5,462 nucleotides of DNA, taken from a virus. A program made the position numbers and the translations under genes. The notes under the pieces are model-generated. The model had not been told where the DNA came from. It was given only the letters and a program-made list of their open reading frames with translations, and did not search any database. Where the stretch lies: IMG/VR virus record IMGVR_UViG_3300045988_021932, positions 1 through 5,462 of that record. One strand, given 5' to 3'. This document shows, piece by piece, positions 1 to 5,462 of the stretch. Numbering within the stretch: the stretch's first letter is position 1; every line of letters begins with the position of its first letter.

Positions 1-77
1 AAGGACTTGGTAAACATAGGTTTGTTCATGGTGGTCACACTCAGCGCCGCCGTGTTGCCCAGCGGACTTGTGTTGTC
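1..77. repeat. Terminal direct repeat, copy 1. Identical to 5386..5462, marking a circular genome with a unit length of 5385 nt.
   Basis: Base-by-base comparison shows all 77 nt (aaggacttggtaaacatagg...acttgtgttgtc) are identical at both window ends. The repeat lies inside the VP1 reading frame, so it is an assembly overlap rather than a biological DTR. Confidence 0.95.
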
Positions 78-1163
78 GGTCGAAGAGGTCTGGATAACCT
101 GAGACACGTTGATAGGCAGTCTGTAGCCGCCCAGATACTCCGGAATTTGCATCCGGCTGTCAGGCGAGATAACCCCAAAGTGTTCCCTCAACACCTCGCG
201 GTATCTTGTGCCGCCTCGTGCGTCTTTTTCCAGCAGCTTCTGGATCTGAAATGCCTGTCGGAGTTGGTTGATGGTCGTTGCGTTTACGCTGCTAAGGTCT
301 GCCATGAGATAATGGGTTGTTACATCACTCCCGGTTGGTTGTGTTGGACCCGATATTGTGTAGGTTCCAATGTTTTGTTCATATTGGATTCCTGCTTTTG
401 GGTATGGGTTTGAAGCGCTGCCGCTGTTTTGTCTGAAGAAAATATCGTCTGGATTTAACGTTTTAAGGTCGCTTTCATATGGTTTAACGCTAGCATTCCC
501 GCTCAGAGGCAGAGTAATCGGTTCGCCTTTCTGAGGTTCGGGCAGTGCTCCGGTGTAGTAGTCAAACACCTTCGCCGCTTTGAGAGGCTTTGCCAACGTG
601 ATGGCGCTGTCGTTGGTTTTGCTGCCGTCGTTTTTGCCGGTTGTGGTTGCGTCCGTCACTTCTACGAGCGTCGGCTGTGTAACGTTCTGGTTCCGGAACC
701 ACTCGTTGTAGATGAGGCCGTATGCGCGTCCCGGCAGAGCGCTCACGCTTATGCCCTTTACTTTGGTAGGCAGACCAAGATAGTCTGCTAAAGTTCCTTC
801 TTCCCAGCCTTCTGCCGGTGCTGTGACCTGCGGGATGCTGTATTCTGTTTTAGGCGTCCATGCGGTTTCTTTGTTTTCACCCATAAACTCCTTCCAGTGC
901 TCCCAGAGCAAGCGGTTCGGCACGAAGAAGAAGTAAAAGTCACAGAAGGCATTGTCCATCACAGGAAAGATTGGCGTTGCCATACGCATGACACAGGCCA
1001 CGTCGATTTCGTGCGTATCCCCGGGTAATACCTCATCCAGATAAATCGGGATGAGGTCGCCGGTGTTAAAGGTGGTTTTGTTGTCACTGTTGCGCTGGAA
1101 TCTGCTTCGGCTTACTCCTACCTGTGGATTCTGTGCAAAGTTGTATTCACTGTTGCGGTTCAC
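1..1163 (-). CDS. VP1: Major capsid protein VP1 (Microviridae F-type capsid), N-terminal and central part. The ORF runs off the left edge and continues through the circular junction into 5385..4911, giving 545 aa in total.
   Basis: A GTG start at 1163..1161 is preceded by GGAGG with a 7-nt spacer. My translation begins (M)NRNSEYNFAQNPQVGVSRSRFQRNSDNKTTFNTGDLIPIYLDEVLPGDTHEIDVACVMRMATPIFPVMDNAFCDFYFFFVPNRLLWEHW. It later reads INQLRQAFQIQKLLEKDARGGTRYREVLREHFGVISPDSRMQIPEYLGG, both classic Microviridae capsid motifs. I scanned triplets 78..600 and found no in-frame stop, and I translated the rest by eye. The frame is continuous with ORF 4911..5423, since 1163 minus 38 is divisible by 3. Confidence 0.93.
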   Translation of the reverse strand, partial: MNRNSEYNFAQNPQVGVSRSRFQRNSDNKTTFNTGDLIPIYLDEVLPGDTHEIDVACVMRMATPIFPVMDNAFCDFYFFFVPNRLLWEHWKEFMGENKETAWTPKTEYSIPQVTAPAEGWEEGTLADYLGLPTKVKGISVSALPGRAYGLIYNEWFRNQNVTQPTLVEVTDATTTGKNDGSKTNDSAITLAKPLKAAKVFDYYTGALPEPQKGEPITLPLSGNASVKPYESDLKTLNPDDIFFRQNSGSASNPYPKAGIQYEQNIGTYTISGPTQPTGSDVTTHYLMADLSSVNATTINQLRQAFQIQKLLEKDARGGTRYREVLREHFGVISPDSRMQIPEYLGGYRLPINVSQVIQTSSTDNTSPLGNTAALSVTTMNKPMFTKS

Positions 1164-1636
1164 TCTGCTGCCTCCTTTTTCTCTGTCGTGTTTTCAGTCG
1201 GCTTTTTTTCCTTCAGGAGATCCATTTTGTCGGCCCACTCTTCCGTGCCGTAGGCCATGACGTATTTTTCTACGTCGTTATCCCATTTGTTTTTGATTTC
1301 GATAGGCAGTGCTTCAAACTGCTTCTTTGCGTCCTCGATGCGGTTGTACCATGTGTGGTAGTCCGTCGGCACGTCGGTAATGTCCACCATCTGCTCACTG
1401 TTCTGCCATTCCTGGTCCCCCAGCGTCGTCGGGTCGTAGGTCGCTCTTTTGATGATGTTTTCGATTTTGGTTTCATCCAGTCGGCTCTGGATGAGTGCAT
1501 AGACGTCGTTTTCGCCGGTTTTCACCAGCTCCCTGCCGGTTTCGGTTATTTTGTACTCGTATTCGGGTTCGTGTCCGTTCCCGGTCAGACTCGTATGCCT
1601 CACGTGGCCGCTGTATGCGCTTCTGAACTCACTCAT
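1160..1636 (-). CDS. VP3: Internal scaffolding protein VP3 (158 aa from the ATG at 1636).
   Basis: The ORF-track frame is 1160..1651, and its listed first codon is GTG. I prefer the ATG at 1636..1634 (MSEFRSAY...), which is preceded by GAGGG with an 8-nt spacer. The segment DITDVPTDYHTWYNRIEDAKKQFEALPIEIKNKWDNDVEKYV matches my recollection of the gokushovirus scaffold pattern (D-P...F..LP...F.N). The acidic/lysine-rich tail, the position just upstream of VP1, and the 4-nt overlap of the stop TGA with the VP1 GTG (GTGA) fit this call. Confidence 0.85.
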   Translation of the reverse strand: MSEFRSAYSGHVRHTSLTGNGHEPEYEYKITETGRELVKTGENDVYALIQSRLDETKIENIIKRATYDPTTLGDQEWQNSEQMVDITDVPTDYHTWYNRIEDAKKQFEALPIEIKNKWDNDVEKYVMAYGTEEWADKMDLLKEKKPTENTTEKKEAAE

Positions 1637-1871
1637 TGGGCTTGCCCTCACATACCAGCGTTCTGCTGTTGTCCATGATTTCGCCGGTTTCGTCTTCCAT
1701 GGTGCAGATGTAGCACAGTTGGAAGTCTTCCGGCTTCACGCTGATAAAGCTGTCTTTGTTCTTCTGCTGACTCTCAAAGAGTCTGCTGGCAACTGCGTCG
1801 TTCTGCTGTTCGAAGAGTCCGCTGTAGCTCTTGGCCACTTTGTCATAGATTGCATAGTATTTTTTCAGCAT
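1629..1871 (-). CDS. Small non-structural protein, VP5/ORF5-like (80 aa).
   Basis: The ATG at 1871 overlaps the upstream stop (TAATG), and the stop TGA overlaps the VP3 ATG by 8 nt (ATGAGTGA). The pattern YAIYDKVAKSY..LF....DAVA.R.F ... PEDFQL..I...DETGEI resembles my recollection of chlamydiaphage-type ORF5/VP5 proteins. That resemblance is recalled, not searched. Confidence 0.7.
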   Translation of the reverse strand: MLKKYYAIYDKVAKSYSGLFEQQNDAVASRLFESQQKNKDSFISVKPEDFQLCYICTMEDETGEIMDNSRTLVCEGKPNE

Positions 1872-1990
1872 TACAGTCTCGTGCCTCCTCGCATGTTTTT
1901 CGGGCTTACGTTGACGGCCTTGGTCTTTTTTGCCGTCTGAGTAAACACTTTCGTGTCTTTTGACTTTTTGACCTTACTTCTCTTCGCCAT
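1871..1990 (-). CDS. Small highly basic DNA-binding/packaging protein (39 aa), gokushovirus ORF8-like and analogous to phiX174 J.
   Basis: This ORF is too short for the ORF track, so I translated it by hand: MAKRSKVKKSKDTKVFTQTAKKTKAVNVSPKNMRGGTRL. It has 14 Lys/Arg in 39 residues. The C-terminal RGG-x-R-L resembles the RGGIRF/L ending I recall for ORF8-type proteins. AGGAG lies 5 nt upstream of the ATG at 1990, and the stop is coupled to the next gene. Confidence 0.75.
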   Translation of the reverse strand: MAKRSKVKKSKDTKVFTQTAKKTKAVNVSPKNMRGGTRL

Positions 1991-2174
1991 GGTTACTCCT
2001 TTGGCTGGTTGCCCTCTACTGCGTGATAAATCTTGTCCAGCATGGCCAAGATTTTGCGGATGTTGTTAAACAGCGCGTCAATTTCCTTGAGAGTCAGAGC
2101 GGTTCACCTCTTTCTAAAAGTTATTTTGTATAAATGGTTTTGTAAAATAGCACTTCTGTGCTGTTTAACCTTGG

Positions 2175-2360
2175 TTATTGCTCTACCCAATTTTCCGGGT
2201 CGAGTGCTTCTGTTGTTCCCAGCATCTTTTTTTCGATGCGGTAAATTTTATCTTTGTCGTAATCGTAGCTGTATCTGTACTTTGTTGTTTCATAGCATCC
2301 GTATTGGTACAGTTTTTCAAGTGCTTTTACACTCAGGTGATTCATGGATTTTGCTTTCAT
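2175..2360 (-). CDS. Hypothetical protein, 61 aa, and the first gene downstream of the consensus promoter.
   Basis: The ATG at 2360..2358 is preceded by GAGAGG with an 8-nt spacer. The product is MKAKSMNHLSVKALEKLYQYGCYETTKYRYSYDYDKDKIYRIEKKMLGTTEALDPENWVEQ. The 79-aa version in the ORF track starts at a TTG that lies inside the -35 box, so I use the shorter start. I recognise no family. Confidence 0.6.
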   Translation of the reverse strand: MKAKSMNHLSVKALEKLYQYGCYETTKYRYSYDYDKDKIYRIEKKMLGTTEALDPENWVEQ

Positions 2361-2385
2361 GTTTCTTACCTCTCTTTCTGTTTGC

Positions 2386-2414
2386 ATTATACCACATGTT
2401 TCTTCTTTTGTCAA
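2386..2414 (-). promoter_or_regulatory. Sigma-70/SigA-type promoter with a perfect consensus: -35 TTGACA, 17-nt spacer, extended -10 TGgTATAAT.
   Basis: The minus strand reads ctaTTGACAaaagaagaaacatgTGgTATAATgcaaacag. The -35 box is at 2414..2409, the -10 box at 2391..2386, and the TG at 2394..2393. It is followed by the SD and ATG of the 61-aa ORF. Confidence 0.85.
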
Positions 2415-2418
2415 TAGG

Positions 2419-2436
2419 TTTTTTGAAATTTTTTTT
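2419..2436 (-). promoter_or_regulatory. UP-element-like A/T tract immediately upstream of the -35 box.
   Basis: The minus strand reads AAAAAAAATTTCAAAAAA, ending 4 nt before TTGACA. This resembles the A/T-rich UP-element pattern. Confidence 0.5.
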
Positions 2437-2441
2437 GAGAG

Positions 2442-2481
2442 GTCATGCGCTAGGCGCGGTGCGCCGTACGAAGAGCATGAC
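2442..2481. other. Nested GC-rich stem-loop with an outer stem GTCATGC/GCATGAC and an inner stem GGCGC-ggt-GCGCC.
   Basis: The inverted repeats are 2442..2448 with 2475..2481, and 2453..2457 with 2461..2465. No T-tract follows on either strand, so it is not a canonical terminator. Confidence 0.6.
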
Positions 2482-2522
2482 GTAACTTCTCGGTCCCGAT
2501 CGCCGGATTGCCTTTATTTACT

Positions 2523-2549
2523 TTTTCAACACTTTCAACACTTTCAACA
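2523..2549. repeat. Iteron cluster C: three tandem 9-bp units (T/C)TTTCAACA. On the gene strand these read TGTTGAAAG.
   Basis: TTTTCAACA is at 2523..2531, and CTTTCAACA is at 2532..2540 and 2541..2549. The period is exactly 9 bp. Confidence 0.9.
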
Positions 2550-2551
2550 GG

Positions 2552-2560
2552 TTTTCCACA
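2552..2560 (+). promoter_or_regulatory. DnaA-box-like 9-mer TTTTCCACA, fitting the relaxed consensus TT(A/T)TNCACA.
   Basis: Read directly from the sequence. It sits in a 10-nt direct repeat TCCACAAAAT shared with the perfect box at 2616..2624. Confidence 0.5.
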
Positions 2561-2566
2561 AAATGT

Positions 2567-2586
2567 TGCACAAAGGTTTTTGTGCA
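2567..2586. other. Hairpin TGCACAAA-ggtt-TTTGTGCA (8-bp stem) whose arms each overlap a DnaA-box-like 9-mer.
   Basis: It is a perfect inverted repeat. TGTTGCACA (plus strand, 2564..2572) and ATATGCACA (minus strand, 2581..2589) each differ from TT(A/T)TNCACA at one position. Confidence 0.6.
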
Positions 2587-2596
2587 TATTGCTACA

Positions 2597-2613
2597 CTTT
2601 CAACAATTCAACA
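2597..2613. repeat. Iteron cluster B: two copies of TTCAACA with an 8-bp period.
   Basis: CTTTCAACA is at 2597..2605, and TTCAACA is at 2607..2613. Confidence 0.85.
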
Positions 2614-2615
2614 AG

Positions 2616-2624
2616 TTATCCACA
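2616..2624 (+). promoter_or_regulatory. Perfect consensus DnaA box TTATCCACA.
   Basis: It is an exact 9/9 match to the canonical bacterial DnaA box, located between iteron clusters in the non-coding region. Confidence 0.6.
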
Positions 2625-2683
2625 AAATTATCAACATTAAGATTAACCAAAAAATATCGTTCCAAGGATAAAAATTCATAGTA

Positions 2684-2698
2684 TTCAACATTTCAACA
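2684..2698. repeat. Iteron cluster A: two copies of TTCAACA with an 8-bp period.
   Basis: TTCAACA is at 2684..2690 and 2692..2698. A degenerate copy, aTCAACA, is at 2630..2636. Confidence 0.85.
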
Positions 2699-2702
2699 CC
2701 TT

Positions 2703-2718
2703 CTACTACTACTACTAC
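2703..2718. repeat. Trinucleotide microsatellite (CTA)5, which reads (TAG)5 on the gene strand.
   Basis: The sequence ctactactactactac is read directly from the window. Confidence 0.9.
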
Positions 2719-2752
2719 AACAAGTTATATATAATAGATTATGTTTGCAAAT

Positions 2753-2792
2753 ACACGTGCGTGCGTGCGCGTTTCGCGCGTGCGTGCGCGTG
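2753..2792. repeat. GC-rich alternating purine/pyrimidine element containing a 13-mer direct repeat GCGTGCGTGCGCG (2759..2771 and 2778..2790, 19-bp period).
   Basis: There are 20 nt (2753..2772) and 18 nt (2775..2792) of strict R-Y alternation, separated by tt. The centre forms GCGCG-ttt-CGCGC. Confidence 0.85.
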
Positions 2793-2831
2793 AGCGTAAT
2801 TTAGCTTATGATTTTGCTTCGTACCTCGGTA

Positions 2832-2846
2832 GCCCCTACGAGGGGC
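2832..2846. other. Short GC stem-loop GCCCCT-acg-AGGGGC.
   Basis: It is a perfect 6-bp inverted repeat. An alternative pairing exists, CCTCG (2824..2828) with CGAGG (2839..2843). Confidence 0.5.
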
Positions 2847-2857
2847 GTACACGAAAG

Positions 2858-2895
2858 GGGTCTCCCGTGGCGACAGGAGACCCTTTTTTGTTTTT
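2858..2895 (+). terminator. Intrinsic-terminator-like hairpin GGGTCTCC-(10 nt)-GGAGACCC followed by TTTTTTgTTTTT. It is oriented on the plus strand, antisense to all genes.
   Basis: The 8-bp GC-rich stem is 2858..2865 with 2876..2883, and the T-tract is 2884..2895. On the gene strand the same hairpin is preceded by an A-tract and followed only by CTTTCG. Confidence 0.6.
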
Positions 2896-2937
2896 ATGAT
2901 GCTTTTAATTAGCCGTGGATAGCTGTGAAACTTGGGT

Positions 2938-2974
2938 GTGGGCCTAATCCTTATCTTGATAGGATTAGGCCCAC
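2938..2974. other. Perfect 14-bp stem-loop GTGGGCCTAATCCT-(9 nt)-AGGATTAGGCCCAC, located 9 nt downstream of the Rep stop codon.
   Basis: The inverted repeat is 2938..2951 with 2961..2974, and the loop is tatcttgat. No U-tract follows on the gene strand. Confidence 0.8.
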
Positions 2975-2983
2975 TGACACCAT

Positions 2984-4006
2984 TTATAGAATCCCTCTTG
3001 CTTTACTAAAGCGTTCTCTGAGATTCTTTTCTTTAATTTTCCCTTGCTGCTCTATTGTTACGTCTGTGTTTGACATCTTGATTTTAAGTGCATTTGTTGC
3101 GCTTGACTGTCTTTTTTCTTTAATCTCCCACAGCCTTTTGGGATTTTCGGTTTCTTGCATCTTGTCAAAGTACCTTGGAATGGGCCTTTTTTTGCCGTTA
3201 AAATATAACCCATCGTCTTTGTACATTTGTTTTTTGTGTTCTTGATAGTAGTCGTATCCTAGACCCGGATTTCGCGACATGCAGCAGTAAGGCGCTGGTA
3301 GCCCTAGCTCATTGTATCGTTTTGTGTCGTTGCCGTAGGCTTTTTTTGTCACATATCCCGCTACATACGCCATTGTTTCCGGTGAGGCCTCTGCAATTAT
3401 TACATTGCCCATTCCCCAGATTTTGTCTATTGTTTCGCTCTCAAAGTATGGATTATTGCCTCTTTTTTTCTTAAGGTCTGGTATTTCTAGCCCATAATAG
3501 ATTGCATGGTGATGCGGTCTTCCTGTGGTTTCGCCGTATTCGCCGCAATAAAAATATCTGAGGTCTGTACCCCATTTATTGGACATTTCTTGCTTTTTTC
3601 GGAGTCTTTTGTTAAAAAGTACCATGTCCTCTTGCAATAGGATTTGCACAACTTCTGGCGCGTCTCCCGTTGTCCACTGGTGGACTGCTCCACGTATAAG
3701 TTCGCCGGTTGCTCTTATCATTCCCGGCACATATTCTTGATTCCATGTAAGAGTAAAAAACCATGCTGGTGTGAGTGTTTTTGACTCCATCAACATTCTG
3801 GTCTCCCAGTCTTGTCGCTGTCTGAGTCTGCATCCCAGACACTTGCCGCATGGTAGCAGCATGACATCTTTTCTATATGCTAGGCTTTCGTATGTCGCCT
3901 CTGGATTATGTGCTCTTTCTCTGTATTTTTCTAGGGTCATGATTGACCCTGTTATGTTATGGTCGTTTGGGTTGTATACTCTGATAAGTGGTCTTTCACA
4001 GCTCAT
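2984..4006 (-). CDS. VP4: Replication initiation protein VP4 (HUH rolling-circle endonuclease, phiX174 gene A-like), 340 aa.
   Basis: The motifs present are CGKCLGCR, motif I FFTLTW, HUH motif II GRPHHHAIYYG, and motif III YVAGYVTKK. In motif III the two Tyr are spaced by three residues, as I recall for phiX174 A. The ATG at 4006 abuts the VP2 stop (TAAATG), and GGAGG lies 8 nt upstream. Confidence 0.93.
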   Translation of the reverse strand: MSCERPLIRVYNPNDHNITGSIMTLEKYRERAHNPEATYESLAYRKDVMLLPCGKCLGCRLRQRQDWETRMLMESKTLTPAWFFTLTWNQEYVPGMIRATGELIRGAVHQWTTGDAPEVVQILLQEDMVLFNKRLRKKQEMSNKWGTDLRYFYCGEYGETTGRPHHHAIYYGLEIPDLKKKRGNNPYFESETIDKIWGMGNVIIAEASPETMAYVAGYVTKKAYGNDTKRYNELGLPAPYCCMSRNPGLGYDYYQEHKKQMYKDDGLYFNGKKRPIPRYFDKMQETENPKRLWEIKEKRQSSATNALKIKMSNTDVTIEQQGKIKEKNLRERFSKARGIL

Positions 4007-4870
4007 TTATTTACCTCCCCCCAATTTGTCTTTCCAGTAGTTTCCGAAGTTGCTGCCGATGTACTGATTGTTCCTAGGCGTTGTTCCGGCTGCTGTGTCT
4101 TTTTTTTCTTTTTTGCCGCCTCCAGCTGCTGTGCTTTTGCCGCTGTTGTTGTTTTGGTTGAGCCATCCGGTTAAGTCCGGGAAATCCGTCTGATAGCTGT
4201 TATAACCGCTACTGTGCTGCTCTCCGTGCGAGTCTGTCCATGACCAGCTTTCTGCTTTGGTCTTGCTGTAGTTTGCTACTGTGCCGGAGATTGTCGGCAT
4301 ACTAGCCGATTGTGTCCCGACGCTTGGTGCGCTCATGCTGCTCTGTCCAATGGTCCCTTGTGCTCCGCCCGGTGTGCTTGCTCCGCCTTGCTGGTATGCG
4401 AGTATTGGATTCAACCCCGCTTTTTTCATGTCGGCCATTGCTCTTTGGTAGCTCGTGTTGCTCATACGCTCTTGCCATGCCCTGTTAGCCGCCGCCTCTG
4501 CTGAGTTGTAGGACATCGCTGCATCCTGCTGGATGCGATTATAAACGCCCTGCTGGATAGCTCCCAGAGTGTTTAAGCCCAGTGCCATGAGAGAGTTCTT
4601 ATTGTTTTGCTGACTCTGCATTCCTTGCGCTTGCTGACTTTGCCCAAGAAAGTATTTTGCAAGCTCTTTTGTTTGGTCAACATTTACGCCGCTTTCTCCG
4701 GTCATTGTTGACCCGCTTGCGCCTTGGCTTGTCTGGTATCCGCTAGAGCTTGTTACTCCACTTCCGGATGTGCCTTTGAGCGCGTTGAAGATTCCTGTTC
4801 CGGCGTTTATGAGCGTGCTTACTCCGCCTAGTAATTTTGCGCCTGCTCCTAGTGCTGCTAAAAATGACAT
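4007..4870 (-). CDS. VP2: Minor capsid / DNA pilot protein VP2, 287 aa.
   Basis: The N-terminus is Gly/Ala-rich ([16 protein letters not shown]) and the body is Gly/Ser/Gln-rich. The segment [30 protein letters not shown] matches the conserved block I recall in gokushovirus VP2 proteins. The position between VP1 and Rep also fits. Confidence 0.88.
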
Positions 4871-4875
4871 GTACT

Positions 4876-4900
4876 AAAATAGCCGGGTTTTGCCCCGGCT
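4876..4900 (-). terminator. Intergenic hairpin plus short T-tract between VP1 and VP2, probably a partial terminator or attenuator.
   Basis: The gene strand reads AGCCGGG-gcaaaa-CCCGGCT followed by ATTTTAG. The 7-bp stem is 4900..4894 with 4887..4881. It lies between the VP1 stop (4911..4913) and the VP2 ATG (4870). Confidence 0.6.
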
Positions 4901-4901
4901 T

Positions 4902-4906
4902 CCTCC
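4902..4906 (-). promoter_or_regulatory. Shine-Dalgarno GGAGG located 31 nt upstream of the VP2 ATG, separated from it by the 20-nt hairpin.
   Basis: The gene strand reads TAAgaaaGGAGGa[hairpin]attttagtacATG. There is no other purine-rich SD and no alternative start codon nearer to it. Confidence 0.5.
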
Positions 4907-4910
4907 TTTC

Positions 4911-5462
4911 TTAGTGATGGTCGATGAGTCCCGGAATACTGTAGACCGGCATACACCGCGTTGTTTTGTTCATAAAGTAAAAGTCTGCGATAAAGTCCGG
5001 CTGAGACTGTACTGCAAGAGTCCGCTTCATCTCGGCTTCGCCTTGTTCCATCCAAGTGGTGCTCAGAGTAGGCAGTGCGTTGTAGTCCTGTGCATAGTGC
5101 CATGCATCGAGACTCTGTTGTGCGTTGCTTCGGAAAAGACCGGTAACCTTGCTCGGCTTATACCGATAGTCGGCCCATGCTTCCTGGTAGCCGAATGCCT
5201 CGTTGTCCTTTGCGTTGCCCTGTGCATAGATTTCTTTGTTAAGAATAGCCTGTTCGCCGATGTTTGCCAGTACCGGCCAGTAGTAGTCATATCGTCCGGT
5301 GCGGCTCCACATGCGTTCGATGCCCTGCTGATAGGTCTGGTCGGTTCGCACCACTGCGAGTCCCATGATAAAGCCGTGTTCTGTAAAGGACTTGGTAAAC
5401 ATAGGTTTGTTCATGGTGGTCACACTCAGCGCCGCCGTGTTGCCCAGCGGACTTGTGTTGTC
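4911..5462 (-). CDS. VP1: Major capsid protein VP1, C-terminal part. It is the same gene as 1..1163, and its last 77 nt duplicate 1..77.
   Basis: The ORF-track protein reads ...RYDYYWPVLANIGEQAI...TTRCMPVYSIPGLIDHH with a stop at 4911..4913. This C-terminus is typical of gokushovirus VP1, and the frame is open up to the right window edge. Confidence 0.93.
   Translation of the reverse strand, partial: DNTSPLGNTAALSVTTMNKPMFTKSFTEHGFIMGLAVVRTDQTYQQGIERMWSRTGRYDYYWPVLANIGEQAILNKEIYAQGNAKDNEAFGYQEAWADYRYKPSKVTGLFRSNAQQSLDAWHYAQDYNALPTLSTTWMEQGEAEMKRTLAVQSQPDFIADFYFMNKTTRCMPVYSIPGLIDHH
5386..5462. repeat. Terminal direct repeat, copy 2 (identical to 1..77).
   Basis: Same evidence as copy 1. Position 5386 corresponds to position 1. 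Confidence 0.95.

Follow-up and report, generated by a model that had tools for sequence, protein, structure and literature searches.

Introduction

At bacterial chromosome origins (oriC), the basal unwinding system (BUS) consists of tandem DnaA boxes, a gap of about 4 bp that was formerly called GC-rich, at least three DnaA-trios, and AT-rich DNA (PMC8287927). The trio, whose consensus is 3'-GAT-5', is a single-strand DnaA-binding motif (PMC6669920; PMC8287927). In published origins, the distance from the better box to the trios peaks at 10–13 bp, with some 4 bp between the proximal box and the trios (PMC8287927), and in C. difficile the trio CACCTACTACTATTACTACTATGA has three boxes on one side and the DNA unwinding element (DUE) on the other, being placed upstream of the DUE (PMC7561715). 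Here we describe an array of TTCAACA repeats (positions 2523–2698), together with the DNA that adjoins it, in a 5,462-nt stretch of viral DNA (IMG/VR record IMGVR_UViG_3300045988_021932, positions 1 to 5,462), which we refer to as the window. The window comprises the complete circular genome of a gokushovirus (5385 nt), with ends that overlap by 77 nt. Textbooks present the Microviridae as the model of replication by a rolling-circle nuclease that the phage itself encodes, and the array adjoins the gene for the replication initiator, VP4. The array and its flanking elements form a module that shares the architecture of the BUS with bacterial origins, is conserved among related viruses, and occurs in either orientation relative to the genes. 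We consider it likely that the TTCAACA repeats are DnaA boxes in the dialect of the host, TT(T/A)TCAACA, and that the module is a viral copy of the host BUS that is opened by DnaA on the replicative form.

Architecture of the repeat module

The heptamer TTCAACA occurs seven times in the window, always on the + strand (2525, 2534, 2543, 2599, 2607, 2684, and 2692), and no further copy was found elsewhere in the genome on either strand. The chance expectation is 0.92 copies, and none of 200 dinucleotide shuffles reached seven. A preliminary description of this DNA had reported these co-oriented repeats as far beyond chance, with spacings of 9 and 9 bp in the first cluster and 8 bp in the second and in the third, as well as a degenerate copy at 2630; all of this holds, the degenerate copy being ATCAACA at 2630–2636. 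The general idea that the repeats are a binding array for a replication initiator is also supported, but the heptamers appear to be the cores of 9-mer DnaA boxes rather than iterons for a phage protein. In addition to the array, the locus holds four features absent from that description, namely the DnaA box TTATCCACA, the box TTTTCCACA, the (CTA)5 repeat, and the weakest 31-mer duplex of the genome. The repeat unit is the 9-mer (T/C/A)(T/A)TTCAACA, of which ten boxes lie in a single orientation within 2523–2698, and the elements follow one another in the order boxes, 4-bp spacer, trios, and AT-rich DNA:

2523–2560, + strand: DnaA-box cluster 1, with TTTTCAACA (2523–2531), CTTTCAACA (2532–2540), CTTTCAACA (2541–2549), and TTTTCCACA (2552–2560)
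2597–2636, + strand: DnaA-box cluster 2, with CTTTCAACA (2597–2605), AATTCAACA (2605–2613), TTATCCACA (2616–2624), and TTATCAACA (2628–2636, containing the degenerate heptamer)
2637–2681, unstranded: AT-rich spacer (about 45 bp) that separates the proximal pair from the upstream boxes, variable in sequence, kept in length and position
2682–2698, + strand: origin-proximal tandem box pair, TATTCAACA (2682–2690) and ATTTCAACA (2690–2698), containing the last two heptamers
2699–2702, unstranded: 4-bp spacer CCTT from the proximal box to the first trio, usually (G/C)CCC in the hosts
2703–2717, − strand: five DnaA-trios, (CTA)5 on the + strand and thus five times 3'-GAT-5' on the − strand
2712–2753, unstranded: AT-rich putative DUE, with 81% A+T in 2718–2753
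2718–2726, + strand: motif CAACAAGTT, virus-specific and nearly invariant, where the trios meet the AT-rich DNA

The box starts of cluster 1 are spaced 9, 9, and 11 bp apart, and the cluster is kept in 13 GenBank relatives, with a fourth box that switches between CCACA and CAACA. Within cluster 2, TTATCCACA at 2616–2624 is a perfect consensus DnaA box, and its column aligns with TTTTCAACA in the relatives L004–L006, L008–L010, L012, and L013.

For the comparison with the BUS, we asked for a box no more than 16 bp from the trios with at most two mismatches to the species motif, a second box with at most four mismatches, and at least three consecutive 3'-NAN-5' triplets (consensus 3'-GAT-5') on the strand and side set by the box orientation. 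Scored in the host dialect, TTWTCMACA, the proximal boxes TATTCAACA and ATTTCAACA have one mismatch each, and the distances from their ends to the first trio are 12 bp and 4 bp. The spacer CCTT provides the 4-bp gap (12 bp from the distal box of the pair), the five trios are perfect copies of 3'-GAT-5', and AT-rich DNA lies directly beyond them. The 31-mer at 2712–2742 is the least stable duplex of the genome (ΔG of −30.0 kcal/mol, compared to a mean of −41.8 and a standard deviation of 3.7 kcal/mol). Since the locus is found on a virus genome rather than on a chromosome beside dnaA and dnaN, we rejected its assignment as a bacterial oriC proper and treat it as an origin look-alike.

The spacer between the upstream boxes and the proximal pair was also inspected by eye. 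The dnaA–dnaN origins of Ruminococcus and Oscillospiraceae (L024, L048, L057, L064) hold a comparable spacer of about 45 bp, often with a small palindrome such as TGTCCATATATGGACA, and at the corresponding position the viral spacers carry short inverted repeats of variable sequence, such as AACGTAGTAACGTT in L005.

The same array at bacterial chromosome origins

We scanned one genome per species from 185,579 bacterial species (596 Gb) for the pattern TTCAACA-N1-2-TTCAACA-N3-6-CTACTAC. Whereas about 2 matches would be expected by chance according to our own estimate (21 specified bases, two strands, and 8 gap combinations), the scan returned 104 bacterial stretches. The motif adjoins dnaA and/or dnaN in 77 of these, mostly from gut Oscillospiraceae and Ruminococcus, and 57 display the order dnaA–motif–dnaN on a single strand, with the trios on the same side of the boxes (downstream of 5'-TTCAACA-3') and in the same orientation as in the virus. 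The flanking DnaA and DnaN genes were confirmed by Pfam in L038 and L057. Clostridia account for 58 of the 80 titles listed for the 104 stretches, including 19 Oscillospiraceae, 14 Ruminococcus, and 5 Acutalibacteraceae. The remainder of the 104 consists of one microvirus contig binned into a metagenome-assembled genome (MAG), gut Alphaproteobacteria MAGs, other chromosomal sites, and coincidences in coding sequence.

The 57 dnaA–dnaN intergenic regions have a median length of 398 nt, and two forward copies of TTCAACA per region are inherent in the search pattern. Their content of box forms is as follows:

TTCAACA: 7.0 forward and 1.6 reverse copies per region, or 17.7 per kb versus 0.47 per kb outside
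TTCCACA: 0.8 forward and 0.3 reverse copies per region, or 2.38 per kb versus 0.30 per kb outside
TTATCCACA: a single occurrence in all 57 regions

These counts indicate that the prevailing origin box form in these bacteria is TTTTCAACA, not TTATCCACA. The motif TT(T/A)TCAACA has been proposed as a DnaA-box motif of mollicutes (phytoplasma review, PMC3322544). The viral box pair and trios are identical, letter for letter, to those in the dnaA–dnaN regions of Oscillospiraceae and Ruminococcus, and within 260 nt the two sets contain, on average:

Viral copies: 8.3 forward boxes, 0.3 reverse boxes, and 4.2 CTA repeats
Host origins: 6.0 forward boxes, 1.3 reverse boxes, and 3.8 CTA repeats

Judging by the motif dialect, the most likely host is a gut bacterium from the Oscillospiraceae/Ruminococcus group. 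Recent capture of the module from a host was considered and rejected, as the BLAST matches span only 35–64 nt, which cover the box pair, the trios, and the start of the AT-rich DNA.

A TTCAACA pair with trios and AT-rich DNA also occurs away from dnaA and dnaN, in gut Alphaproteobacteria MAGs (L015, L031, L066, L073, L082, L100, L115, L116) and in L016 and L026. The TTCAACA dialect is therefore not restricted to Clostridia, and the assignment of a host from this motif calls for care.

Distribution and exchange among microviruses

BLAST with the non-coding region recovered the module from at least 47 GenBank gokushoviruses, found in the faeces of human, pig, dog, monkey, and mink. Fourteen copies that were aligned share the same blocks throughout, with homologous columns in which TTTTCAACA is swapped for TTATCCACA or TTTTCCACA. 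The same pattern is present in 96 IMG/VR contigs, all of 4.4–6.3 kb except one of 10.7 kb; VP1 and/or VP4 are recognizable in 94 of them, and the module adjoins VP4 in 92 (classes A, B, and C below). Where the trios meet the AT-rich DNA, the motif CAACAAGT is found in 83 of the 96 viral copies and in none of the 77 host origins, and its orientation follows the module rather than the genes.

A second microvirus lineage of about 4.7 kb (L268, L269, L275, L277), with a VP1 about 37% and a VP4 about 28% identical to those of the window genome, has four to five perfect copies of TTATCCACA, a TTCCACA pair, (CTA)5-6, and AT-rich DNA downstream of VP4, without CAACAAGT. No box cluster with trios was found in the cultured reference gokushoviruses SpV4, phiMH2K, or Chp2, suggesting that the module was acquired by particular lineages and is not a general feature of microviruses. 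Among 72,556 plasmid records, none showed sequence similarity to the element. A canonical box cluster with trios and AT-rich DNA was also seen in six IMG/VR sequences of 14–76 kb from one metagenome (L267, L272–L274, L276, L279), which may be tailed phages or phage-plasmids that carry an origin look-alike, or else prophage calls into which the origin of the host was included.

The element and the genes around it differ in their relationships. In L002, L003, and L011, whose genes barely align with those of the window genome, the counterpart of the segment 2523–2740 is 88–90% identical, whereas in L118 it reaches only 73% despite a VP4 gene with 96% identity. Trees of the element and of the genes do not agree with each other. 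This mismatch argues that the module moves between genomes by recombination, and its history is evidently one of mosaic exchange among genomes.

These comparisons bear on the proposal, made in the preliminary description alongside a host factor, that the repeats are iterons that serve as specificity determinants for the VP4 Rep or as sites for the 61-aa product of a small open reading frame (ORF) near the array. Direct, phased repeats that adjoin a Rep gene would fit such a role, and the virus-specific CAACAAGT could be a VP4 site. However, the same pair in the same geometry stands in the dnaA–dnaN origins of dozens of chromosomes that carry no phage genes, and the heptamers interchange with canonical DnaA boxes at homologous columns, as described above. 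The co-variation between iteron and Rep that the proposal called for is absent: the heptamer stays the same where VP4 is only 31–48% identical, and over the whole range of 31–98%. A homologue of the 61-aa protein is present in only 20 of the 114 element-bearing genomes. We thus regard iterons for a phage protein as most improbable; the kinship with geminivirus, circovirus, and plasmid iterons is a functional analogy only, and it is the host-factor option that the evidence favors.

The conservation of the module also speaks to a role as a DnaA sink or sensor, in which the multicopy replicative form would titrate DnaA and either stop chromosome initiation as a take-over of the host or couple the phage cycle to the initiation potential of the host, the site itself not being an origin. 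Box regions of the B. subtilis oriC carried on plasmids were named "inc" for their titration effect, and ten boxes multiplied by many copies of the replicative form would hold a large amount of DnaA. Extra DnaA-box clusters modulate initiation in B. subtilis (PMC3245932). A sink, however, needs the boxes alone, and in genomes that span the same range of VP4 identity the trios, the 4-bp spacer, the AT-rich element, and the order of these parts are no less tightly conserved than the boxes. The adjacency to VP4 would also go unexplained, and we consider a sink or sensor improbable.

Orientation relative to the genes and probable action on double-stranded DNA

The 93 related genomes fall into three classes according to the position and polarity of the module:

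Class A, 50 genomes, including the window: genes on the strand opposite to the module; module after VP4, with its AT-rich side facing the VP4 stop
Class B, 39 genomes: genes on the same strand; module between VP2 and VP4, with its AT-rich side about 80 nt before the VP4 start
Class C, 4 genomes: genes on the same strand; module after VP4

Thus, the polarity of the module is free with respect to the coding strand (50 opposite versus 43 same). The coding strand is strongly biased to A over T in all 93 genomes (T–A skew of about −0.30 to −0.37), and the third codon positions behave alike. The viral strand of phiX174 is T-rich, which is the opposite bias to that of the coding strand here. A packaged strand that flips with the orientation of the element was rejected, given skews of −0.30, −0.37, and −0.36 in the orientation classes and similar skews at third positions. 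Furthermore, the single strands of the module fold worse than shuffled sequence on both strands (z = +1.39 and +0.83). The free orientation, the unchanged skews, and the lack of single-strand structure together suggest that the module acts on double-stranded DNA, and they argue against a single-strand origin of the hairpin type.

The same observations weigh on a single-strand signal for complementary-strand synthesis, in which a DnaA-box hairpin would assemble a primosome on the incoming viral strand, as the "A site" of R6K exemplifies. Single-stranded DNA phages require an origin of this kind, and a small hairpin (TGCACAAA/TTTGTGCA, 2567–2586) does lie between the box clusters. Half of the relatives, however, do not keep this hairpin, shuffled sequence is more structured than the module on either strand, and the module is found in either direction with respect to the packaged coding strand. 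A stable, conserved fold of fixed polarity was not found in the module, and we rejected this class of signal as extremely unlikely.

The neighboring hairpin and the VP4 gene

Two features lie on the AT-rich side of the module in the window:

2938–2974, − strand: hairpin with a 14-bp perfect stem (arms 2938–2951 and 2961–2974) and the loop ATCAAGATA on the coding strand, just past the VP4 stop at 2984
2984–4006, − strand: VP4 replication initiator gene, adjoining the module (Pfam PF23343 REP_ORF2-G2P, E = 1.6e-14)

The loop of the hairpin is kept in the 93 relatives and reads CTATCAAG(T/A)A or ATAGACAAG(G/T)A on the coding strand, and its stem is found in at least five unrelated sequences, a pattern of compensatory change. 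The polarity of the hairpin follows the genes, and it stands on the AT-rich side of the module in 88 of the 93 genomes. It is probably a separate replication signal outside the repeat array, and it is a candidate for the VP4 nick site or for a complementary-strand origin. A resemblance to the phiX174 origin (CAACTTGATATTAATAAC versus CAACAAGTTATATATAATAG, and CTTGATA in the hairpin loop) was set aside as too short and too AT-rich.

The hairpin makes room for a DnaA-assisted form of rolling-circle replication, in which melting of the module would expose the hairpin or CAACAAGTT for nicking by VP4, an HUH nuclease, so that DnaA would take the place of the supercoil-driven melting used by protein A of phiX174. 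The adjacency of the module to VP4, the position of the AT-rich side toward a hairpin with a conserved loop and a compensatory stem (30–228 nt away in the 88 genomes), and the virus-specific invariant motif precisely where the trios give way to the AT-rich DNA would all be accommodated. Several observations count against it. Classical gokushoviruses replicate without the module, the hairpin lies on the box side in the four class C genomes (166–316 nt away), and, in the window, the AT-rich stretch and the hairpin are 185 nt apart, with GC-rich structured DNA in between. We also know of no rolling-circle replicon that uses DnaA in such a way. We therefore hold DnaA-assisted rolling-circle replication to be unlikely, though less so than the sink or sensor.

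Genomic setting of the non-coding region

The closest record to the window genome is Gokushovirus WZ-2015a (KT264798, 86.5% identity). The gene set is VP1, VP2, VP3, VP4, and VP5, and every gene is on the − strand: VP1 (across the ends), a Chp2-type scaffold protein, an ORF5 protein, VP2, and VP4. The repeat module lies within a long non-coding stretch (~2415–2983), with the VP4 stop on one side and a promoter on the other:

2414–2386, − strand: sigma-70 promoter with a 12/12 consensus match (TTGACA, a 17-nt spacer, and TATAAT with a TG extension), from a promoter scan

This is the only consensus promoter in the scan, which found no convincing promoter within the repeats. A strong Shine-Dalgarno sequence follows downstream, and then the 61-aa ORF (ATG at 2360, − strand), for which the Pfam search gave no match. 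A search of the whole window with Rfam covariance models (E ≤ 1) returned no matches.

The promoter raises a further reading, a transcriptional operator at which DnaA or another regulator of the host, such as Spo0A, would bind the repeats and control the strong 2414–2386 promoter or the expression of VP4. Spo0A sites are known in phi29-type phages, the 0A box TGTCGAA differs by one base from TGTTGAA, and the extended −10 promoter stands on the gene strand, 110 bp from the first box. DnaA is a transcription factor in many bacteria (PMC13438810). On the other side, the promoter region falls outside the conserved block, and the module varies in location (after VP4, or between VP2 and VP4) and in orientation. 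An operator would have no use for trios and an unwinding element, and the CGAA core that is conserved in the 0A box is disrupted in the heptamer. An operator is thus very unlikely, in our assessment.

Several other structures were noted in this region. Between the promoter and the first box cluster, the inverted repeat GTCATGCGCT/AGAGCATGAC flanks a GC-rich core (2442–2481) and is kept in L118 and L119. The segment 2755–2935 is a GC-rich, highly structured insert, and the − strand of 2745–2985 folds at −51.2 kcal/mol (z = −6.65). The insert as a whole is missing from L118 and L119, the closest relatives, and is found in L120 and L001. Within it, a (CG/TG)n tract of alternating purines and pyrimidines (2754–2797) forms an 18-bp stem with G–T pairs on the + strand; many class A genomes and one Ruminococcus origin (L065) have similar tracts after their AT-rich DNA. 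A terminator-like hairpin at 2858–2883 is followed by TTTTTTGTTTTT on the + strand, that is, antisense to the genes.

Proposed role of the module

According to the reading that we prefer, a viral copy of the host BUS, ATP-DnaA of the host would occupy the boxes on the double-stranded replicative form and oligomerize from the proximal box pair onto the trio strand, and the adjacent AT-rich DNA (2712–2753) would then melt beside the VP4 gene and the conserved hairpin. We favor the view that this opening would start or sustain replication of the replicative form through the initiation machinery of the host, because the whole unwinding apparatus is conserved, beyond the boxes, and because the box complement equals that of the host dnaA–dnaN region. 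The module might be a working copy of the host origin that drives DnaA-fired, theta-mode replication of the replicative form as a minichromosome; we put this forward tentatively, as a possibility with somewhat less than even chances.

A number of points weigh against a viral BUS opened by DnaA. Both proximal boxes have three mismatches to the E. coli consensus TTATCCACA and qualify only in the host dialect; the proximal position is TTTTCAACA in many sister genomes, with two mismatches to that consensus. The boxes at 2597–2613 and at 2682–2698 start 8 bp apart, such that the 9-mers overlap by 1 bp. BLAST against the 104 bacterial stretches revealed no similarity to any host origin beyond the box pair and the trios, and the invariant CAACAAGT, which is missing from host origins, argues that the module is not a plain origin copy. 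The full plasmid-borne origin of B. subtilis needs a second box region upstream of dnaA, and one box cluster may be insufficient to fire. The module is dispensable for microvirus replication in general, as SpV4, phiMH2K, and Chp2 do without it. Finally, we infer DnaA binding, melting, and the subsequent steps from sequence, and the host solely from the motif dialect.

If the reading of the module as a viral BUS is correct, a large group of gut microviruses would also use the initiation system of the host, which would bear on their replication, on their persistence in slow-growing anaerobes, and on interference with host DNA synthesis. Theta replication would give a 5-kb phage of the lytic type, without an integrase, a plasmid-like carrier state or a stage of Rep-independent amplification. 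Hosts are known for few gut gokushoviruses. The box dialect of each phage would then be a guide to its host bacteria; the dialect (TTTTCAACA here and TTATCCACA in the second lineage) can be matched to bacterial origins, and in the present case it points to Oscillospiraceae and Ruminococcus.

Comparison with known systems

The described element closest to the viral module is the BUS of B. subtilis incC and C. difficile oriC2 (Richardson 2016/2019, Pelliciari 2021), which has the same box pair, spacer of about 4 bp, trios, and AT-rich DNA, in the same order and orientation. Extra upstream boxes in the same orientation are a further likeness. Unlike the BUS, the viral module belongs to a single-stranded DNA phage of 5.4 kb, has an HUH Rep gene rather than dnaA and dnaN as its neighbor, adds the invariant CAACAAGT and a strand-specific hairpin on its AT-rich side, and shares no similarity with host origins outside the motifs.

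The theta origins of P1 (oriR), pSC101, F, RK2, and R6K combine DnaA boxes with Rep iterons. They resemble the module in that a mobile replicon recruits the DnaA of its host, with boxes beside an AT-rich region and the replicon's own initiator gene. At these origins, however, DnaA is auxiliary to an iteron-binding Rep and no trios have been described, whereas the viral module has no second repeat family and the initiator encoded by the phage is a rolling-circle nuclease. The iterons of geminiviruses, circoviruses, and rolling-circle plasmids are likewise short direct repeats near a Rep gene and a hairpin with a conserved loop. Those iterons co-vary with Rep and are absent from host genomes, and the TTCAACA repeats do neither; we rejected the Rep-iteron class on both counts, co-variation with Rep and a replicon-specific motif foreign to the host.

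The titrating clusters datA of E. coli and the DnaA-box clusters (DBCs) of B. subtilis are, to our knowledge, without an arrangement of trios and AT-rich unwinding DNA. They share with the module a dense clustering of DnaA boxes outside oriC with an influence on initiation (PMC3245932).

Temperate microviruses reportedly mimic dif and integrate via the XerCD of their host, as Krupovic and Forterre in 2011 and Kirchberger and Ochman in 2020 are said to have described. In both cases, a minimal phage that lacks an enzyme of its own for the purpose would copy a cis-acting site of the host chromosome and borrow the machinery of chromosome maintenance. The viral module would differ in that the site copied is an origin rather than a dimer-resolution site, and in that the expected outcome is episomal opening or replication rather than integration. 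A literature search of limited coverage returned no paper that links Microviridae or gokushoviruses with DnaA boxes, trios, or oriC-like elements. The parts of the module are well known; what appears to be new is that a single-stranded DNA phage of the rolling-circle type carries them as a conserved and mobile module.

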